A DNA stretch of 62,578 nt, counting the filler, from Nitrospirae bacterium CG2_30_53_67 (GTDB lineage: Bacteria > CG2-30-53-67), in the NCBI GenBank assembly GCA_001873285.1. It is 7 parts of 7 records of this genome, joined end to end, with 100 filler letters (N's around TTAATTAATTAA, not from the genome) between each part and the next. Parts side by side here need not be neighbours in the genome. Positions count along the whole stretch, not along the records: positions 1 to 5,819 come from MNYV01000133.1; positions 5,920 to 15,034 come from MNYV01000013.1; positions 15,135 to 20,854 come from MNYV01000066.1; positions 20,955 to 26,651 come from MNYV01000004.1; positions 26,752 to 50,184 come from MNYV01000098.1; 2 more parts are not named here. One strand, 5' to 3'. The position numbers and the translations under genes were made by a program. A model generated the notes under the pieces. It was not told the origin of the DNA, searched no databases, and worked only from the letters and a program-made list of their open reading frames with translations. Position 1 is the stretch's first letter; each line of letters begins with the position of its first letter. Of this stretch, positions 5,466-35,463 are shown piece by piece.

Positions 5466-5750
5466 TCCAAAAGAGTGGGTGAAAACATAAGGGTTACGCT
5501 GCGCGTGCCCCGCTGTTCTCTATATTTGCCGGGGCATCTTGGGGTCAAGGGGTCAAGGATTCCAGGGGTCAAGTGAAGTGCTAAAATCATAAGGGGCCTA
5601 GGATTATAGGGTCCAAGGGTTCCAGTGTTTTTCTCTGAAGATTTTGCTTGCGTTTCAGTATCTCACTTGAACCCTTGACCCCTCGACCCCTGGAACCCTA
5701 TGGATCTTCAACCCTCGAACCCTTTTTACCCACTCGATGGGAGAAGAACC
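5466..5750. mobile_element. Family A element with nested family B insert (5495-5544)
   Basis: Both family termini present (TCCAAAAGAGTGGGTGAAAAC ... TTTTACCCACTCGATGGGAGAAGAACC) with GGGGTCAA arms. Confidence 0.85.
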
Positions 5751-5819
5751 GTAATAAAAGACCTCCTCCAAGGTGATTCGGGATAGACAAAATTCTTGTT
5801 GACGATCTTCTAAAACATG

Positions 5820-5919
5820 NNNNNNNNNNNNNNNNNNNNNNNNNNNNNNNNNNNNNNNNNNNNTTAATTAATTAANNNNNNNNNNNNNNNNNNNNNNNNN
5901 NNNNNNNNNNNNNNNNNNN
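5820..5919. other. Artificial contig linker
   Basis: N44-TTAATTAATTAA-N44, stop codons in all six frames. Confidence 0.97.
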
Positions 5920-7372
5920 GATGTTCTGCGCTCAGATAAAGCCCGGGCTCCGAAGAGGCCTCAACGAGGGCAAAGAGATTCTCCGAACCTGGACCTTTGA
6001 GTTCCTCTCCCTCCTGCCAGTCATTGTTGCTCCACCGTACGGCATGCACGGGACTTTCTCCGAGCTGCAGGCCGGAAAGGGTCTGGGCATAGAGTTCGCT
6101 TCCGATGCTGCGGATGAAAAGCCCTTTCCGGCGGTGTACGATCCGGAGGGCTCCTTGCTGCTGTGTGATCACAAGGACTCCTTCGTCCGTGTTGACGATG
6201 ATCTCGTCCACGCCGTCTCCGTTCAAGTCAGAGGCTTCCAGCCAGAAAAGCGTGGAGAGATCCTGATCTTCGAGTCTTTGGCCCACCCTCAGCATTCCCT
6301 GACGGAACGTATAAATCTGGATCTTCCCCGGTGTCCCGACGGCCAAAGCCCGATTGCCCTCTCCCATGAAGTTTCCTGCGGCCATGGACATGATCCGTTT
6401 GTCCAGTTTGAGGATTCGGACCCAGTGTGCCGGATCATGAAATCCTTGCAATGGGGGGAGCTTGGGCATGGCCGGCAGAACGGCGCCGCCGGCTGCGGCC
6501 ATGGGGAGCGCCAAAGGCGCGGCGGCCTCCTCGCTTTCCGGTCTGTCAGCGGAAAGGATATCTGCGCCCTGCTGAGGGGGAGCGGAGGCCATGGTTTCAG
6601 CCGGGACTGCGGCAGGCAGGGGCTGGGCCGTCTTGGATGCTGGCCGCGCCTCAGCCATGGAAGTACTCCGGGACGAAAGCAGGACCGAAAAGGTGTCGAG
6701 CCCCGCTCCTGTTTCCACGGCATAGGGCGCCATTTGCAGAATGTTTTCTCCGAAACCCGAGAGGACCTTGACCTGTAAGATGAGAGGGGTCTTCAGTGCG
6801 GGCCCCAGTACCGAAAGGTCCATCTGCTCGAGGGCAGAGAAGTCCGCGTAGTGGTTCTGGATCATGGCCGTGAGCACGTCTTCGGTCCGTACCGGGTCGA
6901 TGTCTCCCTTGGGCGGTGAGTATTCAAGAAGAAGACCGAGCGCTTCCCTGGACATGGGGACCAGAGCGACCGGGAGGGGTCTCGGCCATCCCGTGACCGG
7001 ATCGCCTTTTTTGATCTCCTGTTTTCTGATCCTTTCCGCCCGGATTTCCTGGCCGGAAACCCCGGTTACGCGGACCAGGGCCGCCGGCTGAGGGAGAGCT
7101 CCTTTGGCCGTCTCTTTTTTGATCATGAGATAGGCGCCGGATACGACCGGGGAACCCGGCGCCGTCTGGATCACCACCGTGGACCCTTGCACATCCTGAA
7201 CTTTACCGGAAAAGACCGGGAAGAGGTGAAGGATCCGTGAGGTGATCTCCTGATAGGCGTCTGTCTTTGCATGGGCGGTGATGGAGGTGAAGGAAATGAG
7301 AATGGCGGTGATGAACATGAAAAGAACAAGGCCCCTGAGGGCGCGGCCGCAAAGCGGTGGAATAACGGACAT
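5920..7372 (-). CDS. Secreted protein with FG-GAP/VCBS-like repeats, 3' end lost at contig break
   Basis: Signal peptide ending AHA; ASDLNGDGVDEII and AGNFMGEGNRALAV repeats. Confidence 0.7.
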
Positions 7373-9118
7373 CTAATGGGTCTCCTTTCCGTGATAGATC
7401 TGAAATCCAGTGATCCCCCGGATGACCTCCGCGTAACGGGGATCGATGTTAATCAATTGGATCCGTTTCTTGTACCGTTTGATCATGCGTTTCCTGAAAA
7501 GGAGGATCTTGAACGCCATCGGGGTGATCGCGCGGACCTCCTGAAAATTGATGATCACGGTCTTGGCCCCCTGCCGGATCGCCTGCCGGCTCTTGCTCCA
7601 GAGTTTGCGGGCGGAAACCTTGTCCAGCACGCCTTGCAGGTCCAACTGGAAGACCGGCTCGGTCCCGATCTTCCGGATCCGAATCCTGAGGAAGTCCATG
7701 ATCTTTGCCGAGGTCTCCACGGCGCCTTTGGCCGTGTGATCGAGAGCGGCCGTGATCTTCTCCTTAGAGTGGATGATCTCCGGAATCCTGTTGAAGATCT
7801 TCGAGAACCGGGGAACCTTCCCTTCCGGACTCCTTTCCACGATCCGCCGATAGCCGTAGTTCAGGGCGAGCCTGGGGAAGAGCCTCGGCTGAGGATGCAG
7901 GACACGCCTCGCGATGGAGCTTATTTTGTAGGTCTCGTGGAATGCCCAGAAGTATCCCTCCTGAAGCGTCTCCGGCGTCATGAGTTTGGGGTAAAAGACC
8001 GCGTTTCCGGAATTATACTTCCCCCAGTCATAATCGAATATCCTCCCCTGGTCCTGAAGCTTGTGAAACAGCTTGGTCCCCGGGAGCGGGGTCAGGATAT
8101 GATAGGTGGGGAGGGCGATCCGGTTCTTCTGCACAAAGCGGACCGTGCGCTCAAAAACCCCCTCATCGTCGGTATCGAACCCGAAGATGAACCCCGCGTT
8201 GATCATGATCCCGTGGTCATGGATCTTCCTGATGGATTCTTCATATTCCGAGACCTTATTGATCTTTTTGTTTGCGGCCTTCAGGGTCTCGTCCGACAGG
8301 GACTCGATCCCCACGAACATGGAGACGCACCCGCTCATCATAGCAAGTTTAAGGAGTTCATCATCCTTGGCCATGGTGAGCGACCCCTGGCTCCCCCACT
8401 TGATCTTGAGCGGGATCAGAGCGGTGAAGAGTTCCCTGGCATATTTCCGGTTGCCCACGATGTTGTCGTCCACAAAGGCCACGAACTTCGCATTGAACCT
8501 TTCCTTGAGCTGCCGCACCTCGGCCGCCACCTGTTCGACCGGACGGAAACGGTAGGTGTTCCCGAAGAATTCGGTTACGGAACAGAAATCGCAGGAAAAC
8601 GGGCACCCCCGTGTGGTCTGAAGCGAGTTGGCGGTCATGTACCGGTCCCGTTTCAGAAGGCCCAGGCGCGGCATGGGGATTCGGCTCATATCAACGGGTT
8701 TTTCGGATTTGTAGATCCCTTTCATACGCCCGTGTTGAGCGTCCTCGATCACCTTGCCCCAGACATTTTCAGCCTCCCCCACCACCACGGCGTCCGCATG
8801 GGCTAGCGCCTCATCGGGCATGAGCGAGGCATGGATTCCTCCCATGACCACGGGCACCCCTTTGGCCCGGTAGGTCTCCGCAATCTCATAGGCCCTTGGG
8901 ATATAGGTGCTCATAGTCCCGATGCCTACGAGATCCACCGGCTCGTTCAGGTCCAGCGCCTCCACGGTCTCATCCGTGATCGAGACCTCGTGCTCCGGCG
9001 GCGTGAGGGCGGCGATGATCGGGAGGCTGAGCCTGGGGAACCAGATGGCCCGGACTTCCTTTCCGGTATGCCGCATGTGTGAGCCTTTGAGGGCCGGGTC
9101 TATCAGCTTGATTTTCAT
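7373..9118 (-). CDS. B12-binding-domain radical SAM protein with a C-terminal STAS-like domain
   Basis: N-terminal PRLSLPIIAALTP...GGIHAS cobalamin-binding region; TTRGCPFSCDFC CxxxCxxC; C-terminal LDLQGVLD...VIINFQEVRAIT. Confidence 0.88.
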   Translation of the reverse strand: MKIKLIDPALKGSHMRHTGKEVRAIWFPRLSLPIIAALTPPEHEVSITDETVEALDLNEPVDLVGIGTMSTYIPRAYEIAETYRAKGVPVVMGGIHASLMPDEALAHADAVVVGEAENVWGKVIEDAQHGRMKGIYKSEKPVDMSRIPMPRLGLLKRDRYMTANSLQTTRGCPFSCDFCSVTEFFGNTYRFRPVEQVAAEVRQLKERFNAKFVAFVDDNIVGNRKYARELFTALIPLKIKWGSQGSLTMAKDDELLKLAMMSGCVSMFVGIESLSDETLKAANKKINKVSEYEESIRKIHDHGIMINAGFIFGFDTDDEGVFERTVRFVQKNRIALPTYHILTPLPGTKLFHKLQDQGRIFDYDWGKYNSGNAVFYPKLMTPETLQEGYFWAFHETYKISSIARRVLHPQPRLFPRLALNYGYRRIVERSPEGKVPRFSKIFNRIPEIIHSKEKITAALDHTAKGAVETSAKIMDFLRIRIRKIGTEPVFQLDLQGVLDKVSARKLWSKSRQAIRQGAKTVIINFQEVRAITPMAFKILLFRKRMIKRYKKRIQLINIDPRYAEVIRGITGFQIYHGKETH

Positions 9119-9271
9119 TTTTGGAAAGTCCTCCTGGTGCAGCGGTCATGAAAACATGGAGCATTCATGCGTCCCACAGCCGACAGCAGGGAAAGATCCG
9201 ATGAAAAAGATGCTTAAAGATACACCAGGTCCCGTGACATGTCAAGGTTGTGTTTATGTGTGTTTATGTGT

Positions 9272-9633
9272 GGGTGTGCAACAAATTTATGGGTAACATT
9301 TCTCTAAGAGCGTCATTCTCCGACCCCCCGATCGGGCCTGTCCTCCGACTTGGAGGCTGTGTCGCAATGCATTCTGGAGCGAAAAATAAAAAATTGTTCC
9401 CCACATTTTAACCAGGGGAAGTTATGTTGTGGAATCGACAAGCAAGTTGGTTGCTCATGTAAGCGCTCATTCCCCACTTCTTAAAATAGCGTTGCATTGC
9501 GACACAGCCTCTGGATCGGGGAATCCACCCTTCGGCAGGCTCAGGGTGACAATTGTCATAGTGAGCTTGTCGAACCATGGATTGTCCGGTCAAGCATGCC
9601 CTCCGACTTGATCGGGGGGCCGGACAATGACAA
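9272..9633. repeat. Family C REP-like element containing a nested MITE
   Basis: Same GTCATT...GGACAATGAC frame and CCCTTCGGCAGGCTCAGG unit as 2176-2330. Confidence 0.8.
9353..9511. mobile_element. MITE, 159 bp, with perfect 19-bp terminal inverted repeats
   Basis: GAGGCTGTGTCGCAATGCA (9353-9371) and TGCATTGCGACACAGCCTC (9493-9511); interrupts the CCGACTTGATCGGGG palindrome. Confidence 0.85.
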
Positions 9634-9647
9634 CTGCGGGATCCATG

Positions 9648-9932
9648 CTACAGGTTTGCCCGCTTAATGATCTTTTCGAGTTCTTTTCTGTTAATGATTC
9701 TCATAATGGTTATGGTATGGCTTTGCAACCTGTATAGAACCCTGTAATCTCCGGAACGAAGCCGGTAGAGAGGCGGTTTGAATCCTTTCAGTTTCTTAAT
9801 TCCGGATCCTCCGGGCAAGGGGTTTATGGAAAGAGATTTTATCTCCGAGATGACCTGATCACGGAAAGCTTTTGGAATATCATTTAGGTCATCAATGGCT
9901 GCGCGGGCTAATTGGACAATGAATTCATCCAT
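9648..9932 (-). CDS. RelE/ParE-family type II toxin
   Basis: 94 aa, basic; IKKLKG...YRLRSGDYRVLY...INRKE. Confidence 0.88.
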   Translation of the reverse strand: MDEFIVQLARAAIDDLNDIPKAFRDQVISEIKSLSINPLPGGSGIKKLKGFKPPLYRLRSGDYRVLYRLQSHTITIMRIINRKELEKIIKRANL

Positions 9933-9939
9933 TAATCTT

Positions 9940-10175
9940 GCGGCTTTGTAAAAAGTCCATCTGCAGGTTACGCTTTCCGCTCCGAACAGAGTTCAGAGCG
10001 CCGCGTGCCCCGCTTTGCATTATCCATGCCGCCTACGGCGGCTTTAACATTAATGTATCTTGGGGTGCGCTGCGTCCTTCGTCATTGCAGCGTAGCTGTA
10101 AGTACGCCTCATTCCTCAGGACTTGCGCGCGGAGCTATAGGAGCTTTTTACTTTGCCGCCTCATTTGAGGACTTT
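9940..10175. mobile_element. Palindromic non-coding element with nested family B insert (9969-10065), between antitoxin and toxin
   Basis: Imperfectly inverted GCGGCTTTGTAAAAAGTCC ... GAGCTTTTTACTTTGCCGC; inner TACGCT...GTATCTTGGGG. Confidence 0.7.
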
Positions 10176-10421
10176 TTATGATAGGTAGTCATCCAGTGAA
10201 ATAACTCTGCCGGCCTTTATATCCGCTTCCGCTTTTGCTATCTTCTTTCGTATGGCCGGGCTGTTCTCAATGATAAAGTCTTCAAGATCGTCTTCAGTAA
10301 GCCGGGTAAGAGATGCCGCCGGTTTTCCTCTATAGGTGATGATCACAGGTTTTCCCTTCACCACCTCGCGCAACAGTTCATTCGTTTTGTTCTTTAATTC
10401 AACCGTATTGGCCACTCTCAT
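10176..10421 (-). CDS. Phd/YefM-family antitoxin
   Basis: ELKNKTNELLREV..GKPVIITYRGKPAASL; AGGAGG RBS. Confidence 0.9.
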   Translation of the reverse strand: MRVANTVELKNKTNELLREVVKGKPVIITYRGKPAASLTRLTEDDLEDFIIENSPAIRKKIAKAEADIKAGRVISLDDYLS

Positions 10422-10434
10422 AAAAGACGCCTCC

Positions 10435-10473
10435 TAATAGCGCTATTATAATAGCCATGTTGCAGCATGTCAA
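10435..10473 (-). promoter_or_regulatory. TA operon promoter with overlapping operator palindromes
   Basis: Minus strand TTGACA-17-TATAAT; perfect palindromes TAATAGCGCTATTA (10435-10448) and GCTATTATAATAGC (10442-10455). Confidence 0.75.
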
Positions 10474-10500
10474 GAAGATAAAAAAGTTGAGTTATTTTTT

Positions 10501-10962
10501 TTACCTATGCCGTCTTGATTTCATTGCCTTTTCGATCTCCCGAACCTCTTCCCGCTTCTTGATATCCTCTCTCTTGTCGTACTCGCGCTTCCCCTTGGCC
10601 AGAGCGAGTTCCACCTTGGCCAGACCCCTGGAGAAATAGACGGTCACGGGAATCAGGGAGAACCCTTTCTCCCGGATCTTGCCGATCATCCGGCGGATCT
10701 CCCTTTTATGCATGAGAAGTTTGCGGGTCCGGATGGGATCGTGGTTTGAGATGTTCCCGTGTGTGTAGGGGCTGATATGCATCTGATAGAGGTAGAGCTC
10801 TTCCCCCTTTAAACCCGCATAACTGTCTTTGAGATTGGCCTGCCCGTTGCGCAGGGATTTGACTTCGGTCCCGGTCAGGATCATGCCCGCCTCGTATTTT
10901 TCCACCAGGAAGTAATCCCTGTGGGCCTTGCGGTTGGTGCAGACGATCTTTTTTCCTTCCAT
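10501..10962 (-). CDS. smpB: SsrA-binding protein SmpB
   Basis: [44 protein letters not shown]. Confidence 0.98.
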
Positions 10963-11084
10963 GACATCTCCCGGTCTCTTTTTGTATTGATCTACAGTAA
11001 CATAAACACAAAACTCCGGGCAATATGTTTGATAAAAAGGGACGGAGGGGCTTTTTTTGAATATGTATTAGGGTCCGTCCCTTT

Positions 11085-11245
11085 CGGTCTGCGATAAAAA
11101 TATGGGTAGACCTCAGGATTGATATGTTGTCATTGTCCGGCTTGACCGGACAATCCAGTCTTTTATTGTCTGGATTCCCCGATCAAGTCGGGGAATGACG
11201 CTCTTAATAAAAAATATTTATCCATAAATTTACCGCACACCCGGA
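11085..11245. repeat. Family C REP-like element
   Basis: GTCATTGTCCGGCTTGACCGGACAATCCA and inverted TGGATTCCCCGATCAAGTCGGGGAATGAC; outer flank shared with the copies at 2176 and 9272. Confidence 0.8.
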
Positions 11246-11317
11246 CCCTTTTTGAAAGCTTGATTTTCCTGATGGGATGATATAGGATTTTTAAAACCTT
11301 ATTAAGGAGGAGAGACC

Positions 11318-11797
11318 TTGGCGGATCTCAGCCATTTTGATGAAGAGGGGCGTTCCCGCATGGTGGATGTCTCGGACAAGAAAGAGACCCTTCGGGAGGC
11401 CGTGGCGCACGGCGCGATCTCCATGCAGCCCCGGACCTTCGAGCTGATTCAGGACAGGAAGATCAGTAAAGGGGACGTCCTGGGCGTGGCCCGTGTGGCC
11501 GGGATTATGGCGGCAAAACGCACGGCCGAGCTGATCCCCATGTGCCACCCGCTCAGTATTACGGGAATTGAGATCCTCTTCTACCCGGATCCCGAGAAGA
11601 GCAGGATTGAGATCGAGGCCCGGGTCAGAATCACAGGCAAAACCGGGGTCGAGATGGAGGCGCTGACCGCGGTCTCGGCCGCGGCCCTCACTATCTACGA
11701 CATGGCCAAGGCCGTGGACCGGGGGATGGTGATTTCGGATATCCGGCTTATGAAAAAGAGCGGCGGGAAAAGCGGTGTCTTTGAGCGCAAGGCGTAA
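11318..11797 (+). CDS. moaC: Cyclic pyranopterin monophosphate synthase MoaC
   Basis: [47 protein letters not shown]. Confidence 0.98.
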
Positions 11798-11875
11798 AAA
11801 TTGGCCGATAAGTTGGCCGATAAGGTTGAAAAATTCTGAAAAAGGTGTATAGTTATACTACATCATCCAAAGAAG

Positions 11876-12226
11876 GGGGGCGATTGGTCTCGACGGGGGT
11901 GAGAAAGCCCCGGCTGCATGCCGAGGTCCCGGTGGCTCGTTAAACAATCGGGAAAACACAACTGCCAACAACGAACTGGCACTGGCTGCTTAATTAAGCA
12001 ACCCGTCCTCTTTCTCCTGCCTGTGGGGGGGAGTCAGGGCGCAATATTCACAGGATAGCCAAGCGGGGAGGGCTCCGGCCCCAAAGGCGAAACATCAGGA
12101 GATAGCGACGAGGCTAAGCCCGCCCTTGGGGCGTGCCTCCGGGCGAATCCCAAATCCAAGGGTAAGCATGTAGAGGTCGTGGCGGACCATTTCCGGACGC
12201 GGGTTCGATTCCCGCCGCCTCCACCA
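11876..12226 (+). ncRNA. ssrA: tmRNA
   Basis: 5' GGGGGCG pairs with 3' CGCCTCC-A-CCA; T-arm GGGTTCGATTCCC; tag frame 11964-11993 encodes ANNELALAA*; smpB nearby. Confidence 0.95.
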
Positions 12227-12260
12227 ATTATTACTTGTTGCATTGCAACAAGTAATAATT
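12226..12260. terminator. Perfect hairpin between convergent ssrA and cheX-like genes
   Basis: AATTATTACTTGTTGC-ATT-GCAACAAGTAATAATT. Confidence 0.7.
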
Positions 12261-12261
12261 G

Positions 12262-13128: not shown

Positions 13129-13221
13129 GACGGATCTCCCTCATTTGAAAATAGTTTAAATAGGACAACTCTCGTACGGGCACATTTACCCCGGAAACCG
13201 TCTCGTCATCCCTGTAATTAT

Positions 13222-13532
13222 GGTTCTTCTCCCATTTAGTGGGTAAAAAGGGTTCGAGGATTCAAGGGTTCAAGGGGTCAAGTGAAATACTGATACCGGT
13301 AAACCGAGTACAAGAACGCAAGCAAAATCTCCAGAGAAAAACACTGGAACCCTTGATCCCAAGATGCCTTAGTGTAGTAGCCGTCGCAGACGGCAAGTAT
13401 AGAGAAAAGCGGGACACGAGAAGCGTAACCCTATGACCCTCGGCCCCTTATGTTTTTAGCACTTCACTTGACCCCTGGAATCCTTGACCCCTTGACCCCT
13501 GATGTTTTCACCTACTCTTTTGGAGATGATTC
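13222..13532. mobile_element. Complete family A element with an 8-bp flanking direct repeat and nested family B insert (13357-13427)
   Basis: GTAATTAT at 13214-13221 and 13533-13540; ends GGTTCTTCTCCCATTTAGTGGGTAAAAA and TTTTCACCTACTCTTTTGGAGATGATTC. Confidence 0.88.
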
Positions 13533-13539
13533 GTAATTA

Positions 13540-13905: not shown

Positions 13906-13999
13906 TCACCCTCCTGACTTGTCTTGCCGAACAACCATGCATGAAGTTGAATTTATGAATTGGTACCTTTATCGGCATAACGGGCAGTTTTCTTTAGAC

Positions 14000-15034: not shown

Positions 15035-15134
15035 NNNNNNNNNNNNNNNNNNNNNNNNNNNNNNNNNNNNNNNNNNNNTTAATTAATTAANNNNNNNNNN
15101 NNNNNNNNNNNNNNNNNNNNNNNNNNNNNNNNNN
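15035..15134. other. Artificial contig linker
   Basis: N44-TTAATTAATTAA-N44. Confidence 0.97.
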
Positions 15135-15384: not shown

Positions 15385-15432
15385 AAAAAAGGTTTCTCAA
15401 ATGATGATCCTTTTATAAGGAGATGGATCCTT

Positions 15433-20627: not shown

Positions 20628-20854
20628 GGTTCTTCTCCCATTTAGTGGGTAAAAAAAGGGGTCAAGGATTCCAGGGTTCAAGGGGTCAAGTGTTTGTTTT
20701 CCAGTGACTTGATCAGTGCCTTGAGCATCCACTCAACCTCCTCGATATCACTCTTAAGTCTTTTTGTTATTTTATAAATCTCCAAACATAATTGATATGA
20801 CTGGGGCCTTTCCTTTAACTCCTTGTAGTATTTGAGCACTTCACTTGGCCCCTG
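20628..20854. mobile_element. Family A element carrying a four-helix-bundle gene remnant
   Basis: Terminus GGTTCTTCTCCCATTTAGTGGGTAAAA and GGGGTCAA arms flank ORF 20678-20839. Confidence 0.8.
20678..20839 (-). pseudogene. Internally deleted four-helix-bundle (23S rRNA IVP/TIGR02436-like) protein, 53 aa
   Basis: Manual translation MLKYYKELKERPQSYQLCLEIYKITKRLKSDIEEVEWMLKALIKSLENKHLTP keeps the family N- and C-terminal helices but lacks the central Q.RRA..S...NIAEG core. Confidence 0.7.
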
Positions 20855-20954
20855 NNNNNNNNNNNNNNNNNNNNNNNNNNNNNNNNNNNNNNNNNNNNTT
20901 AATTAATTAANNNNNNNNNNNNNNNNNNNNNNNNNNNNNNNNNNNNNNNNNNNN
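20855..20954. other. Artificial contig linker
   Basis: N44-TTAATTAATTAA-N44. Confidence 0.97.
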
Positions 20955-26651: not shown

Positions 26652-26751
26652 NNNNNNNNNNNNNNNNNNNNNNNNNNNNNNNNNNNNNNNNNNNNTTAAT
26701 TAATTAANNNNNNNNNNNNNNNNNNNNNNNNNNNNNNNNNNNNNNNNNNNN
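26652..26751. other. Artificial contig linker
   Basis: N44-TTAATTAATTAA-N44. Confidence 0.97.
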
Positions 26752-26898
26752 ACTGGAAAACAAACACTTGACCCCTTGACCCCAAGATACCTCAGTGTAG
26801 TAGCCGTCGCAGACGGCAAAGATAGAGAAAAGCGGGGCACGCGAAGCGTAACCCTGGAATCCTCGAACCCTTTTTACCCAATAAACGGGAGAAGAACC
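26752..26898. mobile_element. Family A element end with four-helix-bundle 3' tail and nested family B insert (26780-26850)
   Basis: CTGGAAAACAAACACTTGACCCCTTGA encodes LENKHLTP*, the same tail as ORF 20678-20839. Confidence 0.8.
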
Positions 26899-26915
26899 AG
26901 TCATTTAAACGGAGT

Positions 26916-27443
26916 TCATGGTTCCCATCTTTCATAGCAGACGATCTCATTCAGGGATTTTCTGCCGTTAAACTCCGGCGTTTCATTCGGATATCCAATG
27001 GGCGTCATCCCCACGACCCGCCATGGGTCCGGGATATTGAGGAGCGCTTTGACCTTCTTCTCGTTGAAGGCGCCTATCCAACAGGTGCCCAGCCCTTCGG
27101 AGGCTGCGGCCAGCATCATATGATCGAGGGCAATGGAGACATCGATTGCAAAGGTCTTCATGTAATCGCCTTGACGCTGATAGCATTCCTCTTCATTGCC
27201 GCAGGCCACAATGCTCGCGTCTCCCATGCCCAGGTGGAGATGTTTCGCTCCCCGAGTGCATTCTACCAGGGCTTTCTGTGTCCCTGGGTCGCGTATCACC
27301 ATGAATTTCCACGGCTGAAGGTTCACGGCCGAAGGAGCCAGCCGGGCTGCGTTGAGTACGCGCTCCAAGACCTCTTGAGGGATTTTTTTATCTTTGAATT
27401 TTCGGATGCTCCGTCTCTTCTGTATCGCCTCATAGAGTTCCAT
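26916..27443 (-). CDS. Nitroreductase family protein
   Basis: RRSIRKF, APSAVNLQPWKF, GLGTCWIG, IGYP. Confidence 0.92.
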   Translation of the reverse strand: MELYEAIQKRRSIRKFKDKKIPQEVLERVLNAARLAPSAVNLQPWKFMVIRDPGTQKALVECTRGAKHLHLGMGDASIVACGNEEECYQRQGDYMKTFAIDVSIALDHMMLAAASEGLGTCWIGAFNEKKVKALLNIPDPWRVVGMTPIGYPNETPEFNGRKSLNEIVCYERWEP

Positions 27444-27622
27444 GTCACTTCCTCTCCGGTAAAGGTTGCATTTTTTTGTTTGCTCTTCCAATCCGTTTGA
27501 ATTATCATAGTATATGAAAATTTGATCAAGAGATCAATCCTTTCATGATATTTCAGTCACTGAGAAATTTCGTGCCTTCGTGTCTTTACGGCAAATAGGT
27601 TCGGATTTATCGGGTTGGGAAT

Positions 27623-28720
27623 ATGGATAAACGTTCGGCTTTTTTAGCATTAAACGCCGCCAAGGGGATGACGCCGAGACTTTTTTGGAAGGTGATACGG
27701 ATGGTTTCGGATCCAGGCCGGATCTTCTCCATGACCGAGGAGAAGATGATGGGCATGGGCCTCACCCGGGAGATGGCCGGCCGTCTGCTCCATGAACAGG
27801 ATCCGGCGCGCTTTGCAGACGAGGAGGAGCAGCGGATTCGGGAGATCGGAGGGAAGATCCTGATCCATGGCGATCCGGGATACCCCCCGTCTCTCCTGCA
27901 GATTACTGATTCTCCGCCGGTCCTTTATCTGCTCGGAACGTTCAGGAAGGAGGACAGGCTTTCCTTTTCTATCGTGGGCTCCAGGGCAGCCTCCACACAA
28001 GGGCGTTTGAATGCGGAAATGATCTCAGGCAAACTGGCCGGCATGGGGATCACCATTGTCAGCGGGCTCGCCATAGGGATCGACACCTGGGCGCATCAGG
28101 GGGCCCTCATGGCCGGAGGACGGACCATCGCTCTTCTGGGGTGCGGTCTGGACCATCCCTATCCGAGATACAACAGGGAACTCAGGAATCGGATTGCGGA
28201 GCATGGGGCGCTGATGAGTGAATTCCCTCTGGGATCTCCCCCTCTTCCCATGAACTTTCCCCGGAGAAACCGGCTTATCAGCGGGATCTCCATGGGGACC
28301 CTGGTGGTTGAGGCCGCGAAAAAAAGCGGTTCCCTGATTACGGCAAAATTTGCCCTGGAGCAGGGAAGAGATGTCTTTGCCGTTCCGGGGAACATCCGCT
28401 CACCGCTCAGTTCCGGAGTCAACGCTCTCATTAAGAAGGGGGCCAAGCTGGTCGAAAGAGTCGAGGATATTATCGAGGAGTTTCCGGATGAGGTCCAAAA
28501 GTACCTCAAGCTGCATGAAACGAAGATTGAAGAGCATTCGGCGGGCCGGGACCGGGAAGAGCGCCTGATCCTGAAGCTGATCCACAAGGAGCCCGTGCAT
28601 ATCGACGAGCTGACCCGGGAGACCAGCATAGCGCCGGCGGCGATTTCCTCACTGCTGATGAAAATGGAGATGCAGGGATTGGTCAGACAGCTTCCGGGCA
28701 AGCTTTTTATCAGACCGTAA
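27623..28720 (+). CDS. dprA: DNA-processing protein DprA
   Basis: IVGSR, VSGLAIGID, FPRRNRLISG, SGSLITA, FAVPG. Confidence 0.96.
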   Translation: MDKRSAFLALNAAKGMTPRLFWKVIRMVSDPGRIFSMTEEKMMGMGLTREMAGRLLHEQDPARFADEEEQRIREIGGKILIHGDPGYPPSLLQITDSPPVLYLLGTFRKEDRLSFSIVGSRAASTQGRLNAEMISGKLAGMGITIVSGLAIGIDTWAHQGALMAGGRTIALLGCGLDHPYPRYNRELRNRIAEHGALMSEFPLGSPPLPMNFPRRNRLISGISMGTLVVEAAKKSGSLITAKFALEQGRDVFAVPGNIRSPLSSGVNALIKKGAKLVERVEDIIEEFPDEVQKYLKLHETKIEEHSAGRDREERLILKLIHKEPVHIDELTRETSIAPAAISSLLMKMEMQGLVRQLPGKLFIRP

Positions 28721-28735
28721 CGTAATGGAGGAAGA

Positions 28736-31177
28736 ATGGGAAAATCACTGGTGATCGTGGAATCACCTTCCAAGGCCAAGACCATTCACAAGTTTCTCGG
28801 GAAGAACTTTAAGGTATTGGCATCGGTAGGGCACGTACGGGACCTTCCAAAAAAGGAACTCGGAGTGGACCTGGAGCGGAATTTTGAACCCAAGTATGTC
28901 ACCATCCGAGGCAAAGGTAAGGTTCTTGCTGAGATCAAGAGCGCAGCCCTGCATGCCGATGCAGTCTATCTGGCGCCCGACTTCGACCGAGAAGGCGAGG
29001 CCATTGCCTGGCACCTGGCCCAGATCCTGGAAAACAAGACCAAGGAGATCTACCGGGTGGTTTTTAATGAAATTACTCAGAAGGCGATCACCCAGGCCTT
29101 TCAGCATCCGGGACGGATCGACCAGAACCGAGTCGATGCGCAGCAGGCCCGGCGCATTCTCGACAGGATTGTGGGTTATAAAATCTCTCCGCTCCTCTGG
29201 GAAAAGGTCAGGCGGGGTCTTTCTGCGGGCCGGGTCCAGTCCGTGGCCGTCCGCCTCGTCTGTGAGCGTGAGGTTGAGATCCAGGCTTTTAAGCCCGAGG
29301 AATACTGGTCGATTACGGCGGAGCTTAAGGCCAAGGAGCCGCCGGTCTTTGAGGCCAAACTGCAAAAGATATCCGGAGGCAAAGCGGAGGTATCCAATGG
29401 GGAGCAGGCCCAAGGCATCATTGAGAAGATCCAGGGTCAGGATTTCCGGGTAAGCAGCATTGAAAAGAAACAGAAAAAGAAAAACCCCGTGGCCCCCTAT
29501 ACCACGAGCAAACTCCAGATGGATGCCTCAAGGAAGCTCGGGTTCTCAGCCAAAAAGACCATGATGATCGCACAAAAACTCTATGAGGGGCTTCCCGTAG
29601 GGAACGAAGGAAACGTCGGGCTGATTACCTATATGCGGACCGATTCCACGAGAGTGGCCGTGGATGCCCTGAATGAGGTGAGGGGGCTGATCCAGGATCG
29701 GTTTGGAAAAGAATATCTTCCGAACAGTCCCAGGCAGTATGCCAAGGGCAAGGGCGCGCAAGACGCCCATGAGGCCATACGCCCCACCTCCTCGCTGCGG
29801 GACCCCGAATCCATCCGAGCCTACTTGGACCATGACCCTTTTCGCTTGTATCAGATGATCTGGAACCGGTTTGTGGCCAGCCAGATGAACCCTGCCATCC
29901 TGGATACCGTATCCGTGGATATCCATGTCAAGGAGTTTACCTTCCGTGCCACGGGGAGCGCCATCCGGTTTAAAGGGTTCATGACGCTCTATATGGAGGA
30001 GGCCGAAGGAGAAACCGGTCCTGTGGAAGGGGAGAGTGTCCTGCCTCCTCTCCACGAAGGGGAACTTCTTCATGTCCGTCAGATTGTTCCGAGGCAGCAC
30101 TTCACGGAGCCGCCTCCCCGTTATAGCGAGGCCACCCTGGTCAAAGAGCTGGAAGAGAAGGGGATCGGGCGTCCCAGCACCTATGCGGCGATCCTTTCCA
30201 CCATCCAGGATCGGGAATATACGGAAATACGGGAAAAACGTTTTCACCCGACCCCCTTGGGGGTGTTGGTGAACCGCCTGCTGGTTGAAAGCTTTCCGGA
30301 TATCCTGAATGTGGAGTTTACATCGAACATGGAGGGGGAGCTGGACCGGATCGAGGAAGGGATGTCGAACTGGAAGGTGATCCTGAAAACCTTTTATGAC
30401 AAGTTCGTCGGGGATTTGGAAAAGGCCCGCGTGACCATGCGGGATATCAAGAAGGAGCTCGAGGATACCGACATCATCTGTGAAAAGTGCGGGAAGAAGA
30501 TGGTCATCAAGTGGGGCTACAACGGCGAGTTTATCGCCTGTTCCGCCTTTCCGGAATGCAAGAACACCAAGGATTTTCTGAGGGACGAAGAGGGCCGAAT
30601 CCAGATTATGAAAGTGGAAAAGGCCGATGAGAAATGTCCGGAGTGTCAGGCGGAGATGGTGGTGAAGCAGGGAAAATACGGAAGGTTCCTGGCGTGCACC
30701 CGGTATCCGGAATGCAAAACCACGCGCAGGCTTGTTCAGGATGAAAACGGCAGGATTAAGACCGCTCCTGAAGAGAAGACCGATGAGATCTGTGATAAGT
30801 GCGGAAAGCCCATGGCCGTCAAACATGGGCGATACGGCAAGTTCCTCGGATGCAGCGCCTATCCGAAATGCAAGAATATCAAGCCGCTCAGCATCGGTGT
30901 GCCGTGCCCCGTGGAGGGGTGCGGCGGCTTCGTCGTTCAGAAGATATTCAAGGGAAGGACCTTTTACGGCTGCAGCCACTATCCCAAGTGCCGGTTTAAC
31001 AGCAAGCAGAGGCCCTTGAACGAACCGTGCCCTGCCTGCGGCAGCCCTTATCTCATCGAACGTTTCCGCAAGGAGGGGGAGACATACCATAAGGATATCG
31101 GCTGCCCGAACAAAAGTTGTGAATACGCCCGTGAGATTGAAGATGCAGCTCTCAAAGATGGGTCTTCTCCAAAATAG
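28736..31177 (+). CDS. topA: DNA topoisomerase I with C-terminal zinc ribbons
   Basis: IVESPSKAK, DREGEAIAW, SAGRVQS, LITYMRTDS, AHEAIRP; repeated C4 ribbons. Confidence 0.98.
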   Translation: MGKSLVIVESPSKAKTIHKFLGKNFKVLASVGHVRDLPKKELGVDLERNFEPKYVTIRGKGKVLAEIKSAALHADAVYLAPDFDREGEAIAWHLAQILENKTKEIYRVVFNEITQKAITQAFQHPGRIDQNRVDAQQARRILDRIVGYKISPLLWEKVRRGLSAGRVQSVAVRLVCEREVEIQAFKPEEYWSITAELKAKEPPVFEAKLQKISGGKAEVSNGEQAQGIIEKIQGQDFRVSSIEKKQKKKNPVAPYTTSKLQMDASRKLGFSAKKTMMIAQKLYEGLPVGNEGNVGLITYMRTDSTRVAVDALNEVRGLIQDRFGKEYLPNSPRQYAKGKGAQDAHEAIRPTSSLRDPESIRAYLDHDPFRLYQMIWNRFVASQMNPAILDTVSVDIHVKEFTFRATGSAIRFKGFMTLYMEEAEGETGPVEGESVLPPLHEGELLHVRQIVPRQHFTEPPPRYSEATLVKELEEKGIGRPSTYAAILSTIQDREYTEIREKRFHPTPLGVLVNRLLVESFPDILNVEFTSNMEGELDRIEEGMSNWKVILKTFYDKFVGDLEKARVTMRDIKKELEDTDIICEKCGKKMVIKWGYNGEFIACSAFPECKNTKDFLRDEEGRIQIMKVEKADEKCPECQAEMVVKQGKYGRFLACTRYPECKTTRRLVQDENGRIKTAPEEKTDEICDKCGKPMAVKHGRYGKFLGCSAYPKCKNIKPLSIGVPCPVEGCGGFVVQKIFKGRTFYGCSHYPKCRFNSKQRPLNEPCPACGSPYLIERFRKEGETYHKDIGCPNKSCEYAREIEDAALKDGSSPK

Positions 31178-31242
31178 TGGGTGAAAACAAAAGGGGCCTT
31201 TTTACCCACTAAATGGCCGATGGCTCGTAGAGGAGAAGAACC
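31160..31242. mobile_element. Minimal (empty) family A element; its terminus supplies the topA stop codon
   Basis: GGGTCTTCTCCAAAATAGTGGGTGAAAAC...TTTTTACCCACTAAATGG...GGAGAAGAACC. Confidence 0.7.
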
Positions 31243-31357
31243 AATAGAAAACTGTAGCGGGTGCGGGGGAGACAAAGGGGTTGGAGGAAGAATAAAGAGA
31301 ACCGTCCCCTTTAGTTCCCAATCACTCCGGCTTGCTCGCGCCGGTGGAGGTGTGGTA

Positions 31358-31660
31358 ATGAGCATAAAAATTGATATTCCGAAAGCGGAAATCCAAGAGT
31401 TTTGCCGTCGCAACCAAATCCGCCGTTTGGCCGTGTTCGGGTCGGTTCTGCGCGATGATTTCACGCCCGAAAGCGATGTGGACGTGCTGGTGGAATTCGA
31501 GCCGGGCGCGCGAGTGGGGTTGATTGCGTTGGCGGGTATGGAAATCGAATTGAGTCAACTGCTGGGCCACAAGGCGGAAATGCACACGGCCAAGGGCCTC
31601 AACCCGCATTTCCGTGATGAGGTGTTGGGCCTGGCGGAGGTGCAGTATGAGCAAGGGTGA
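31358..31660 (+). CDS. MNT-family nucleotidyltransferase antitoxin
   Basis: FGSVLRDDFTPESDVDVLVEF; GGAGG RBS. Confidence 0.9.
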   Translation: MSIKIDIPKAEIQEFCRRNQIRRLAVFGSVLRDDFTPESDVDVLVEFEPGARVGLIALAGMEIELSQLLGHKAEMHTAKGLNPHFRDEVLGLAEVQYEQG

Positions 31661-31991
31661 CGACTCGCTCAGTCTGAAAGATATGCTCAATCACGCCCGA
31701 GAAGCGGTCGAGCTGTTGGGCAATTCGAGCCGGGAAGAATTGGGACGCAATCGTGTAATGCAGCTGGCGCTGACGCGTCTGGTGGAGATTGTGGGCGAGG
31801 CAGCCAATCGCGTCTCTGAGGAGACACGATTGGCGAATCCGAAAATTCCTTGGCCGCAGATCATCGGAATGCGTAATCGGCTTGTTCACGGGTATGATGT
31901 AATAGACTTTGATTTGCTGTGGGACACGGTGACGGACGACCTGCCTCCACTGATCGCTGCGTTGCAAGAGATCGTGAGGGAAAAGGAATAA
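31647..31991 (+). CDS. HEPN (DUF86/HepT-like) RNase toxin
   Basis: EIVGEA, IPW..IIGMRNRLVHGY (RxxxxH); overlaps the MNT gene. Confidence 0.9.
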   Translation: MSKGDDSLSLKDMLNHAREAVELLGNSSREELGRNRVMQLALTRLVEIVGEAANRVSEETRLANPKIPWPQIIGMRNRLVHGYDVIDFDLLWDTVTDDLPPLIAALQEIVREKE

Positions 31992-32059
31992 AACCGATGG
32001 CGGGGAACAAACAGGAAGGAACAAATAGGGGCCATTTAAATAACGGTCGCTGTCCCCCT

Positions 32060-32192
32060 TTACTACGGGCAGAGTATAAATTGTCAGACTTCCCGGGAGG
32101 CTTCATGCGAGGGAAGTACGCGAGCCGCTTGCGTAAGTCATCGAATATCGTTGTCCTTAGACCTGAAGTGGCTGAAGCATTCCCCAACGAAT
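32060..32192 (+). pseudogene. Fragment of a small antitoxin-like (BrnA-like) protein
   Basis: LRAEYKLSDFPGGFMRGKYASRLRKSSNIVVLRPEVAEAFPNE, no proper start or end. Confidence 0.45.
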
Positions 32193-32260
32193 GGGGTCAG
32201 ACACCAAATCAAATACCGCATGGGCAAGGAACTGGACAACGGCGAGGAAGGAGAATAAGT

Positions 32261-32580
32261 ATGCAAGAAAAATCATTAGCCATTTTTGAAAACTATAAAA
32301 TCCGCCGTCACTACAATGAGCAGACAGATAAAATTATGGTTGGCCAAGGTGGGATACGAACGATTGCAGGATATGAGCGATCCCGCGCGCTCACTCGATC
32401 GCGCCCGTAAATACTGGCGTGAGCACGGCAGAAGCGAAAAGTGGATCCAACAGCGGATGATGGGTCAGGAAACCCGTAATAAACTTACCGATTACTGGAA
32501 AGACCACGAAATAACCAAGGAAGACGAATATGCTATTCTCACCAACATCATTCATCAGGAATGGAGCGGCGTTTCAGTCG
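32261..32580 (+). pseudogene. Bro-N-domain (antirepressor-like) gene remnant with internal deletion and frameshift
   Basis: MQEKSLAIFENYKIRRHYNE switches frame to IKLWLAKVGYER...GRSEKWIQQRMMGQETRNKLTDYW...ILTNIIHQEWSG, then is truncated. Confidence 0.65.
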
Positions 32581-32630
32581 ATTTGGAAGCATACATTGGC
32601 GCTTGTGCCAAAATATGCTTACAATAACAC

Positions 32631-33953
32631 ATGAATAATGCAAACCAGGAACTGACCGTTATCGGAGGGGGGCTGGCCGGCAGCGAGGCCGCTTTCCAGG
32701 CTGCTGAAAGGGGGATTCATGTCCTGCTCTACGAAATGCGTCCTACCCGGTATACCCCCGCCCATAAAACCGACCGGCTGGCCGAGCTGGTCTGCAGCAA
32801 TTCGTTTCGTTCCGAGGACCCCGCCAATGCCGTCGGTCTGCTCAAAGAAGAGATGCGGCGTGCCGGTTCTTTGATCATCCGGGCGGCTGATGCCCATCGG
32901 GTTCCGGCCGGATCGGCCCTTGCCGTGGACCGGGAGCGGTTTTCCGAGGAGATTACTCAAGTGATGATGCATCATCCCCGTATCCGCGTCATGCGGTCAG
33001 AAATCACGGAGATCCCGGAAAGGGGAGTCGTGATCCTGGCCACAGGCCCATTGACTTCCGACCGGATGGCCGATTCCATTACGCGGTTCACAGGATCCTC
33101 GCATCTCCACTTTTATGATGCCATCGCCCCGATTCTGGATGCGGAATCCATCGACCGCTCTTTGGTCTTTGCGGCTTCCCGTTACGACAAAGGGGGGGCT
33201 GACTACCTCAACTGTCCCATGGAAAGGGAGGAGTACGACCGGTTCTATGAAGCCCTGACGGCCGGGGAGAAGGTTCCGGCGGAACCCTTTGAGGAGCCCA
33301 GGTATTTTGAAGGGTGCATGCCCATCGAGGTTATGGCGGAGCGCGGCAGGGAGACCCTCTTGTTCGGCCCTATGAAACCGGTGGGCCTGATCGATCCGAG
33401 AACCGACCGGCAGCCCTATGCCGTGGTTCAGCTCAGAAAGGAAAACCGGGAAGGGGCGGCGTACAACATGGTCGGGTTCCAGACCAAGCTCACCTATCCG
33501 TCGCAGGACAGGGTCTTCCGGCTGATTCCAGGGCTGGAAAAAGTCGAGTTTATGCGGTATGGTAGTGTGCACAGGAACACCTTTGTGGACGGGCCGAGAA
33601 TATTGAAAAAGACCCTTCAGTTCCGGCAGAGGGAAGATCTCTTCCTGGCCGGGCAGATCACGGGTGTGGAAGGATACGTGGAATCCACGGCCATGGGCTG
33701 GCTGGCCGGAGTTCTTGCAGCCCGTATGATCCAGGGGGAACCCCTGTCGCCGCCTCCGCCGGCCACGGCCCATGGCGCCCTTGTGGAGCATGTGACCAAC
33801 GAGGCCTATAAGGAATTTCAACCCTCCAATGTCAATTGGAGCCTGTTCCCATCACTTCCCGAAAAGATTCGTTCCAGGCGTGAGCGGAGGGAGAAGATGT
33901 ATGGCCGGGCACTGGCTCAATGGGAGGAGTATCGGAAACAGGTGACGCTATGA
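32631..33953 (+). CDS. trmFO: Folate/FAD-dependent tRNA (uracil-5) methyltransferase TrmFO
   Basis: [44 protein letters not shown]. Confidence 0.97.
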
Positions 33954-34903
33954 AAGACATGCCGGATCAGCAGACCGGGACTGCGGCCTTTGACAGGCGC
34001 CTCTCGGAATTTGAATCCTACCTCAAACATGAAAAGAATGCCTCGGAGCATACGGTCAAGAATTACTTAAGCGATCTGATCCAGTTCAAGGCATTTCTCG
34101 GGGCATACCGATCCTGCCTGGAGGATTTGAGCCGAATCGATCATCGGGTCATCAGGCATTTTCTCTCTTATCTTCATCAGAAAAAGTATCATAAGTCCTC
34201 CATGGGGCGGAAGGTGGCGAGCCTCAGGAGTTTTTTTAAGTTTCTTCACCGTGAGAGGGTTGTGCAAGTCAACCCGGCCAAGGCCGTGGCCACGCCCAAG
34301 GCGGAAAAGAAGCACCCCAGGTTTCTCTCCGTGGACGACGCCTTCCGGTTGATGGAGGCGCCGGATGAGAAGACCGGATCCGGCCTCCGGGACAAGGCGA
34401 TTCTTGAGGCATTCTATTCCTCCGGAGTCCGGATCAGCGAGCTGGCCGGATTGAATGAAGAAGACATGGATCTCTCCATCGGCCTGATGAAAGTGATGGG
34501 CAAGGGGCGCAAGGAACGGATTGTCACTCTCGGATCGCATGCCGTCCAGGCGGTCGAGCGATACCTGAAAGGCAAGGATGTGCCGGGTGACGGGACCTTT
34601 CATGCCGGGCACAAGACGCCGCTGTTCCTGAACCGATACGGCAGCCGGCTCAGCATCCGTGGGATCCGCAGGGTTGTTGAAAAATATGTGAGGCAATCTG
34701 CCGCGGCGTCCCGCATTTCACCCCATGGGCTGCGCCACTCATTTGCCACCCACCTTTTGGACGGAGGCGCCGATCTCCGGAGCATTCAGGAACTCCTGGG
34801 CCATGTCAGCCTCTCCACAACTCAGAAGTACACACATGTCAGTATGGATAAACTCATGGAAGTTTACGACAAGGCGCATCCGAGGGCCCACAAGAAACGC
34901 TGA
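33950..34903 (+). CDS. xerC: Tyrosine recombinase XerC
   Basis: [31 protein letters not shown]...TTQKY; follows dprA-topA-trmFO. Confidence 0.9.
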
Positions 34904-34986
34904 TCATGATTGACTTCTCGATCCGTCCCGTTGTAAACTCCGTTATAGAAAAAATTCCATGACGGAGTGAACTCCCTTTAAAGAAA

Positions 34987-35463
34987 GTTCATCTCCAAAA
35001 GAGTGGGTGAAAACATAAGGGTTCAAGGGGTCAAGGATTCCAGGGGTAAAGTGAAGTGTTAAAACATAAGGGGCCGAGGGTCCCAGTGTCGTGTCAACCT
35101 TGTAGTGTCTTTTGGTGTCACCCCCTCATCCTAACCTTCTCCCCTATGGGGAGAAGGGATGTTTGAACCTCCTTTCCCCTTGGGGAGAGGATTGAGGTGA
35201 GGGGGAAAATGGGATACGTCATTTTAGACGTGACGCGACACTATAGTTCAGGGTTCCCAGTGTTTTTCTCTGGAGATTTTGCTTGGATTTCAGTATTTCA
35301 CTTGACCCCTTGACCCCAAGATACCTCAGTGCAGTAGCCGTCGCAGACGGTCCCGGCCCGGCAAGAATAGATTCAAGGAGATGCCGGGATCTAACGACAA
35401 AAACAGAGAAAAGCGGGGCACGCGAAGCGTAACCCTGGAATCCTCGAACCCTTCTTACTCATT
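34987..35463. mobile_element. Family A element with two nested inserts
   Basis: Terminus CATCTCCAAAAGAGTGGGTGAAAAC; inserts at 35085-35242 and 35314-35431. Confidence 0.82.
35085..35242. mobile_element. MITE with 12-bp TIRs enclosing a CCCTCATCCTAACCTTCTCCC-type double hairpin
   Basis: AGTGTCGTGTCA ... TGACGCGACACT (11/12 complementary). Confidence 0.7.

Follow-up and report, generated by a model that had tools for sequence, protein, structure and literature searches.

Five short hairpin-bearing sequences, here called family B, lie within other repeats in a 62,578-nucleotide stretch of DNA (the window) from the metagenome-assembled genome (MAG) of Nitrospirae bacterium CG2_30_53_67. They raise the questions of what such a sequence is, how it comes to sit at base-exact positions in its hosts, and what could move it. 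Our answer to the first is that B is very probably a discrete, structured, non-autonomous mobile module. For the explanation that best covers the observations as a whole, in which this module has the tRNA T-loop as its archetypal site and would be moved in trans, we estimate a probability of roughly 0.45.

The window consists of seven contigs (C35-C41) of the host MAG (G000; 2.37 Mb, 183 contigs, 95% completeness) set end to end, with linkers of N and TTAATTAATTAA between them (window 5820-5919, 15035-15134, 20855-20954, 26652-26751, 50185-50284 and 56631-56730); since the contigs are separate, adjacency across the linkers is meaningless. Our genome collection holds only 14 species genomes of this phylum, in two families, f1 (9 genomes, including G000) and its sister f2 (5). 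G001 is a same-genus relative of G000, with ~80-88% identity in flanking DNA. The main host of B, family A, is a repeat with terminal inverted repeats and inverted octamer arms; a larger form carries a 23S_rRNA_IVP gene or an internally deleted remnant of it. A preliminary description of the window, made from its sequence alone, had placed five B copies, and all five are present where it placed them and on the same strands (the caret marks the insertion point):

26780-26850, plus strand: B short form, 71 nt, in a family A copy (right arm) at CACTTGACCCCTTGA^ACCCTGGAATCC
13357-13427, plus strand: B short form, 71 nt, of the subfamily beginning TCCC, at CACTGGAACCCTTGA^ACCCTATGACCC
35314-35431, plus strand: B long form, 118 nt, upstream of dnaE; G001 has an empty site at the orthologous position
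35351-35397, plus strand: inner insert of this long form, 47 nt, with its own stem TCCCGGC...GCCGGGA
5495-5544, minus strand: B derivative, 50 nt, hairpin H1 lost, at CCTTGACCCCTTGA^ACCCTTATG; sister copy at G000:C183:1843
9969-10065, minus strand: core of ancestral type, 97 nt, divergent, with an extended 3' hairpin CGCTCTGAAC...GTTCGGAGCG

B begins with CCCCAAGAT and ends with GCGAAGCGTA, and has no terminal inverted repeats; its first base is C, T or A, the placement of the boundary being ambiguous by 1 nt. The 3'-end 19-mer has four matches in the window at up to three mismatches, against none in 100 shuffles. The 9969 copy escapes this search, its motif being split by the longer hairpin, and the 5'-end 9-mer CCCCAAGAT alone, at up to one mismatch, is not above chance (21 matches, 28.7 expected). 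Across the whole of G000 the 19-mer occurs 45 times. The search of the genome and its relatives that had been proposed gave ~50 copies in G000 (47 places by blastn, 44 by covariance model) and the core, by which we mean B and its relatives of 71 to ~100 nt family-wide, in 9/9 f1 genomes. The blastn places comprise 26 short forms (62-77 nt), 14 long forms that contain the 47-nt inner insert, one long form truncated at its 5' end, and six fragments or variants. With a profile search four further, divergent copies came to light, on C36 (C36:4082, the window copy at 9969-10065), C33, C131 and C167. Unpaired 5' or 3' B ends in G000 are short remnants (C26, C61, C144, C147, C62 and C46) or chance matches. 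Two of the five window copies adjoin contig ends, as expected because repeats break assemblies; one of them, at 26780-26850, directly follows a 23S_rRNA_IVP gene remnant that is cut by the contig start, and matches copies on C1, C10 and C98 at 100% identity.

That B inserts precisely can be read from filled and empty versions of one host. In a host module that could be anchored on both sides, 30 copies are empty (27-31 nt, typically GGAACCCTTGAACCCTATGACCCTCGG) and 19 are filled, and a filled copy exceeds an empty one by exactly one B (71 nt, or 118 nt for the long form). B lies in this module at CTTGA^ACCC, or 8 nt upstream at CTGGA^ACCC, with the total host length constant. For the copy at 13357 there are 30 paralogous empty sites, reading GGAACCCTTGAACCCTATGACCCTCGG or close variants, and uninterrupted host sequence (CCCTTGAACCCTGGAATCC) is also present at 59893-59911 and 20666-20684.

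Comparison of G000 with G001 leads to the same result: three orthologous sites differ by B alone, with neither a target duplication nor a footprint. The long form upstream of dnaE (35314-35431) is absent in G001:C38, where the empty site reads CCCCTGGA|CCCCTGGAATCC, and the G001 copies at L014 and L067 are absent at G000 C10 and C60. Among 12 G001 loci compared, both flanks fell on one G000 contig in seven: at two of these B alone is missing in G000; at four (L070, L072, L075 and L076, of which L075 alone was aligned in detail) a larger B-containing piece is missing or shorter; and at L005 both species have a B-bearing family A copy in different arrangements. At C69:7338 the entire A-plus-B block (~260 nt) is absent from G001. 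These differences show that turnover of B is recent and that B is, in addition, carried along by family A. Together with the filled and empty paralogues, they bear out the earlier picture of a discrete hairpin element that lacks terminal inverted repeats and inserts at a motif without duplication.

The region is carried by 23 sequencing runs, all of groundwater or aquifer DNA and all seen as contigs only. Over window 26752-46700, contigs of four DNA runs have joints that skip B (35312→35432 and 35313→35434), with sides of 20-24 letters and other letters carried; we read these as probable paralogous empty family A copies rather than alleles.

The proposed survey of insertion sites gave the motif NNGA^AYCC, with insertion between the two A's and no duplication. 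Over 42 delimited G000 sites, which are not independent since most lie in homologous arms, we found G at -2 in 40/42, A at -1 in 41/42, A at +1 in 42/42, C at +2 in 39/42 and C at +3 in 41/42; end points are exact and targets are not random. Sites in family A arms read CCTTGA^ACCC, CCTGGA^ATCC and CCTCGA^ACCC. The flanks fall into 11 clusters by automatic single linkage, or at least 12 contexts by reading, and the C98 copy, although 100% identical to those on C1, C10 and C39, lies in another context, which favours several insertion events, as had been claimed. G000 also contains 1472 empty T[TGC]GAA[CT]CC sites (437 expected from composition), 550 of them in octamer-rich DNA, 922 outside it and 31 resembling T-loops; few sites are therefore occupied, nearly all of them in the arms.

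The core also has a fold of its own, supported by covariation. In an alignment of 31 non-identical cores from six genera-level sources, with 20 pairs, we proposed four helices: P1, a 4-bp helix closing the 5' end (columns 1-4 with 60-63; CCCC with GGGG); H1, a 6-bp hairpin with a GNA-type loop; the closing stem of the 3' hairpin, H2, which stops one base short of the 3' end; and the H2 extension found in longer forms, in place of which the short form has a GAA triloop. Helix cells were paired in 96.7% of cases, against 34-52% with the partners slid, and changes on both sides were seen in 12/20 pairs; 0/500 shuffles reached the observed values. P1 is the weakest helix (90% paired). H1 and H2 (helices 2-4) contain G-U cells and no A-C cells, which indicates that the forward strand is the folded one. 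Energy minimisation gives a consistent picture, with modest forward-strand z-scores (-1.5 to -3.3) that discriminate neither between RNA and DNA nor between the two strands. When folded, the core sets its two ends, and so both junctions, side by side. Most of the hairpin loops read GCA, GAA, GTA or GGA and have a closing C-G pair; loops of this kind are unusually stable in DNA.

A probable home for the core is suggested by tRNA-Ser genes. The divergent core on G000:C131 lies just after a tRNA-Ser gene, within a second copy of that tRNA's 3' part, in a unit that reads ...GGGGGTTCGA[core]ATCCCTCTCTCTCCGCCA. In G005 each of three successive tRNA-Ser genes is followed by a unit, and every unit ends with the 3' end of its own tRNA; units or cores also stand beside tRNA-Ser genes in G002, G003, G004, G006 and G007, and in G008 a contig begins within a unit. 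At the T-loop site of the units the core sits at TTCGA^ATCC; all genera of f1 have cores at this site, in additional tRNA-Ser copies, complete or incomplete, that adjoin the genuine genes. G004 has, next to an intact 89-nt tRNA-Ser(CGA) gene, a full-length second copy that a 99-nt core interrupts at TTCGA^ATCC; 69 nt of this copy precede the core, and the 18 nt after it are all identical (18/18). Cores also occur at GAGA^ACCC in the 5' part of units, and head-to-tail in G002 and G008. In G000, ARAGORN reported no interrupted tRNA gene among 42.

Judged by these sequence arrangements, the core appears to be the mobile part of tRNA-Ser-linked repeat units, and the T-loop is probably the home site of B. 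Since the core occupies the T-loop sequence TTCGA^ATCC in the units, the family A octamers would be look-alikes of the tRNA T-loop site GGTTCGA^ATCC. The preliminary description missed both of these points, the apparent T-loop resemblance of the target and the apparent home in tRNA-Ser-linked units. It had also taken the fifth window copy for a one-off insertion into an unrelated element, which has to be withdrawn: the surrounding scaffold is conserved and carries the core in several genera.

9940-10130 (limits approximate), minus strand: stand-alone scaffold round the 9969-10065 core, AAGTCCTGAGGAATGAGGCGTAC...core...ACCTGCAGATGGACTT

This scaffold has a paralogue at G000:C33 and relatives in other genera (L043, L048 and L049), and its core scores 98.6 bits with the covariance model, R1. 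Inner inserts had been proposed in two window copies. The long form at 35314 does contain one (47 nt), while the extra sequence of the 9969 copy is the extended 3' hairpin usual in tRNA-linked units. The 47-nt insert has 14 full copies in G000 (seven at 100% identity) and two partial ones; it is confined to B copies and is identical across both B subfamilies despite their differing backbones, and seems to have spread among B copies more recently than the subfamilies split. Nesting thus reaches three levels, with the 47-nt insert in B and B in family A.

Three further observations concern these units and cores. On G004:C229 (L036, 1-2500) a dense array comprises an intact tRNA-Ser(CGA), two copies interrupted in the T-loop, and several minihelix units that each contain one or two cores; the same array contains a second core type, ending ...AAAAGTCA, at GAGA^ACCC. 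In an unrelated genome, G028 (L096, G028:C29, 1399-1601), the unit after a tRNA-Ser(GCT) gene has, at TTCGA^ATCC in its copy of the tRNA 3' end, an insert that is 40 nt long and different from the core. The core at G000:C167:7085-7350 (L089 386-650) has ~200 nt of extra, strongly self-complementary sequence within its 3' hairpin. The C167 variant and another on C81 gave no Rfam match.

The core is restricted to one family of genomes. The 71-nt sequence has matches in all eight other f1 genomes and in 0/32 genomes outside the family, and R1 gives 3-67 matches per genome in 9/9 f1 genomes and none in the five f2 genomes. A pattern scan of 185,579 species genomes returned nine stretches, of which seven are genuine (all groundwater MAGs of the same kind) and two are chance. 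Metagenome contigs yielded 24 stretches, 23 of them detected by the B profile and, by their flanks, mostly G000 loci seen again. A one-pattern scan of a viral contig collection gave no matches.

How might such a module move? In the explanation we favour, a structure-specific enzyme that acts on single-stranded nucleic acid would move B in trans, the first choice being a Y1 HUH transposase of the RAYT/IS200 kind (RAYT, transposase associated with repetitive extragenic palindromic (REP) sequences). Its cuts would fall 3' of the A that ends the left flank (NNGA^) and of the A that ends B itself (CGTA^). On this account the short form has spread in G000 into the T-loop-like octamers of the family A arms, and B gains further copies as a passenger whenever family A is copied. 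We rank this route above the alternatives discussed below, while the more specific proposal that the enzyme is an HUH transposase is tentative and stands as one of several possible mechanisms. The absence of terminal repeats and of a duplication, the presumed cuts after A on both sides, and hairpin loops of a kind stable in DNA are in keeping with it. Y1_Tnp genes are present in G000 and all eight other f1 genomes. The G000 Y1_Tnp protein on C69 has 326 aa and a weak DnaA_C-like tail; a second, IS200-like Y1 gene lies at three contig ends (C109 end, C125 end and C85 start); and a RAYT-like Y1 gene at G000:C71:18297-19401 (L051) is broken up by part of an IS91-family (Y2, zinc-finger) transposase that has an in-frame TAG.

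Several observations weigh against this explanation, some against the HUH enzyme in particular. The preliminary description had suggested an HUH mechanism (IS200/IS605, REP or IS91), which is unproven: G000 has Y1 genes and the broken IS91-like gene, and none is flanked by B ends. The long versions with a transposase between B ends that it proposed to look for were not found in G000; no gene-bearing version was seen in the 24 metagenome stretches, of which the cores and 30-nt flanks were read, or in the viral collection, which gave no matches at all. Homologues of the 326-aa Y1 protein occur in 8/8 f1 genomes and in 11/27 other genomes, as well as in 5/5 f2 genomes, which have no core, and a close orthologue (at least 57% identity) is found in only 2/8 other f1 genomes. 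IS200/IS605 elements show a strong orientation bias relative to replication, from lagging-strand insertion. The orientation of B relative to contig GC skew was positive for 20 copies and negative for 26 (p 0.46), this being a crude proxy that passenger copies blur. The two B hairpins are unlike each other, and the 3' hairpin abuts the end of B, unlike that of IS608. The right flank (AYCC) is conserved as strongly as the left, which a pure left-flank rule does not need; almost none of the 922 empty sites outside octamer-rich DNA is used; and B subfamilies track host type, so that many copies came from spread of family A, or conversion among its copies, and not from new insertion.

The alternative we place next, and think unlikely, is that movement takes place at the level of RNA. 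The core would be an intron-like or retro-mobile structured RNA that enters T-loop-like RNA, perhaps through reverse splicing or a template switch, and becomes established in DNA by reverse transcription; or it would be a functional extension of a tRNA-like minihelix RNA, of which the DNA copies alone are visible here. Much of what was described above could be expected from such an RNA: the forward strand is the one that folds, with G-U and no A-C cells in helices 2-4, the junctions lie side by side in the fold, the core in tRNA-linked units is always in the tRNA sense, and after a 23S_rRNA_IVP gene it is in the sense of that gene. The closest architecture, RtT of Escherichia coli, is annotated as an RNA product. 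The split point follows A58, where T-loop/UA_handle motifs have a bulge that can take up additional helices (PMC2615604), and small archaeal tRNA introns spread between genes by a mechanism given as unknown (PMC4090602). What the RNA route lacks is an apparent means: G000 has no group II intron reverse transcriptase beyond a single fragment, and the family A octamers have no T-stem and so would form no T-loops as RNA. We also know of no bacterial machinery for protein-dependent splicing of tRNA introns.

Less likely still is another site-specific recombinase (tyrosine, serine, or IS110-type DEDD with a guide RNA) acting on a shared core A|NCC, between a target YNGA|AYCC and joined ends CGTA|CCCC. 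It would account for the information in both flanks, for the resemblance of the first four bases of B (CCCC, TCCC, ACCC or ATCC) to the right half of the target, and for tandem cores, since insertion recreates target-like junctions; T-loops are, moreover, classical crossover sites of integrases. Yet tyrosine recombinases require inverted arms, which the octamer sites do not have, and no integrase gene was noticed beside B copies, where no systematic scan was made. The IS110-like mechanism put forward earlier fares badly, as the DEDD transposase (PF01548) has no hits in G000 and is present in 4/8 other f1 genomes (and 2/5 f2 genomes) against a core in 9/9; two of the f1 genomes without it are 99-100% complete and have 3 and 29 cores. 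Last in our ranking, and also improbable, is that B has no machinery of its own and is copied by gene conversion among family A copies, A-plus-B amplification and rare microhomology template switches, the "target" then being donor flank (…YNGA, AYCC…). The correlation of B subfamilies with host type, the absence from G001 of a whole A-plus-B block at C69:7338, the fact that all three clean orthologous polymorphisms lie at positions filled in other family A copies, and arms made of slippage-prone tandem octamers all fit this account. It sits poorly with the same exact boundaries in unrelated contexts (the tRNA T-loop, GAGA^ACCC, stand-alone scaffolds and several octamer registers), with the head-to-tail cores in G002 and G008, and with the two positions in the type-2 module at constant host length, for which slippage needs two compensating events. 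Compensatory changes also keep the four helices across genera, which implies selection on B itself, and this conserved, covarying fold argues against purely passive spread as the whole story.

The family A copies around two of the window copies are as follows:

34990-35455 (limits approximate): family A copy with inverted octamer arms GGGTTCAA, GGGGTCAA and GGATTCCA; host of the 35314 copy
13240-13520 (limits approximate): family A copy of the miniature inverted-repeat transposable element (MITE) type, surrounding the 13357 copy

A further example of family A lies at G000:C161:50700-51650, and the whole element is present or absent between the sister species. A 67-aa C-terminal piece of its protein matches PF05635 (23S_rRNA_IVP, a four-helix bundle) at E 9e-12; every 23S_rRNA_IVP gene of family A that we saw is either a remnant or truncated at a contig end. 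B stands directly after the stop codon of this gene. At ~35085-35245 family A also contains an unrelated element of ~160 nt with terminal inverted repeats (TAGTGTCGCGTCA...TGACGCGACACTA), seen again at G000:C164:3044; its G001 orthologue differs by a 19-nt gap. In front of the second Y1 gene of G000 stand one to three tandem copies of GGAACAAATAGGGACAGCGCCCATTTTTACTTGACTTCAC, a ~40-nt repeat unrelated to B that may be the REP-like partner of this gene. The other features of the window are ordinary: a transfer-messenger RNA (tmRNA; tag ANNELALAA) at 11876-12226, an SmpB gene nearby at 10501-10962, and a flavin mononucleotide (FMN) riboswitch at 51356-51482. The tmRNA and the riboswitch are the only Rfam families in the window at gathering thresholds.

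The system offers a clean natural case of a very small structured element with a base-exact target and recent activity between sister species. It also connects a repeat that is scattered over a genome with tRNA-linked units of the RtT type. Where such units come from and what they do has been open since the tyrT locus was sequenced; the mode of action of RtT is still described as unknown in the part of the literature drawn on here. Should the T-loop prove to be the real target, a sequence that ranks among the most conserved in biology would serve as a landing site, and the arms of another element would act as decoys that spare the tRNA genes. With the targets defined, the mobilising enzyme is accessible to a search at the bench. 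The link to T-loops and RtT-like units is to us the most interesting lead. At its boldest, and we consider this somewhat unlikely, the core would be the first described bacterial element to home to the tRNA T-loop, at A58/N59, with tRNA-linked units (RtT/tyrT in E. coli, or that of G028) as its scars or safe havens and B as an escape into a decoy motif of another mobile element; strand transfer might then be of a new, structure-guided kind without terminal repeats or duplication. Searches of open-access text turned up no paper on an element inserting in bacterial T-loops, or explaining RtT repeats as insertions.

Among known systems, a classical MITE was considered and rejected, since B has neither terminal inverted repeats nor a target-site duplication. 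Insertion sequences that land in repeats are familiar, such as IS1397 and ISKpn1 in bacterial interspersed mosaic elements (BIMEs) or REP sequences, and IS110-family members in REP sequences. B resembles these, and nested MITEs, in using the repeat of another element as a landing pad; it differs in that they carry genes, or terminal inverted repeats and duplications, and B has none of these. IS91 elements insert next to CTTG or GTTC. With a 1-nt shift of the boundary some B sites read CTTG^A, and the TCGA, TGGA and GAGA sites do not fit.

Closer are the palindrome-associated transposable elements (PATEs) of IS200/IS605 and the REP and REPIN (paired REP) sequences with their RAYTs, which share with B the lack of terminal inverted repeats and duplications, subterminal hairpins, sequence specificity, non-autonomy and many copies. 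B inserts 3' of a fixed word, NNGA in 40/42 sites, without a duplication or terminal inverted repeats, as IS200/IS605 elements do. It departs from PATEs and REPINs in having no Y1 gene between its ends, unlike hairpins, conservation of both flanks, and Y1 homologues that do not track the core. REP sequences are short palindromes that have a conserved tetranucleotide at the 5' end and are often arranged as inverted pairs around or close to one RAYT gene; in B, GTAG precedes H1 in the short form and is not conserved across the alignment. No inverted doublets of the REPIN type were found for B, and RAYT-like genes are unlinked to it.

The tRNA introns of the Thermoproteales are likewise short, similar inserts at several positions of different tRNA genes, and how they spread is given as unknown (PMC4090602); they differ in having a bulge-helix-bulge and an archaeal splicing endonuclease, whereas here the host is a bacterium and most copies lie outside tRNA genes.

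The nearest counterpart is the set of 178-bp RtT/tyrT repeats of E. coli (RF00391). In both, the unit stands downstream of a class II tRNA gene; its first part is complementary to the 3' end of that tRNA and leads into (A)TGAGAA, its last part repeats this 3' end together with CCA, and its T-loop is broken, at GGTTCGA^...^ATCC, by a hairpin-rich insert. At the E. coli K-12 locus a tRNA-Tyr gene is followed by GGGGAAGGATGAGAAGCTTCGACCAAGGTTCGA, a 68-nt insert with GCA and GAA hairpins, and ATCCTTCCCCCACCACCA. Units with a T-loop split at TTCGA^ATCC were met in E. coli K-12, G005, G004, G002, G003 and G000:C131. RF00391 aligns end to end with units in 4/8 f1 genomes at 26-32 bits (best 31.9; per-genome E 3e-4 to 1e-2), all under its gathering score of 45, and has no match in G000; permissive Rfam scans over the units returned only such sub-threshold RtT hits and tRNA-driven ones such as sX4. 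Hits of RF00391 in G024 and G013 were spurious on inspection. The differences lie in the insert and its distribution: the E. coli insert occurs at 1-9 places per genome, the eight records listed of 4728 all being annotated RtT, and is linked to tRNA-Tyr, whereas here the core is dispersed and linked to tRNA-Ser. Since R1 gives only 7.4 bits (E 0.43) on the E. coli insert, the likeness we claim, judged from the aligned units, is one of architecture and does not extend to homology of the inserts: the tRNA-Ser-linked units appear to be built like RtT, with a T-loop opened at the same point by a hairpin-rich sequence.

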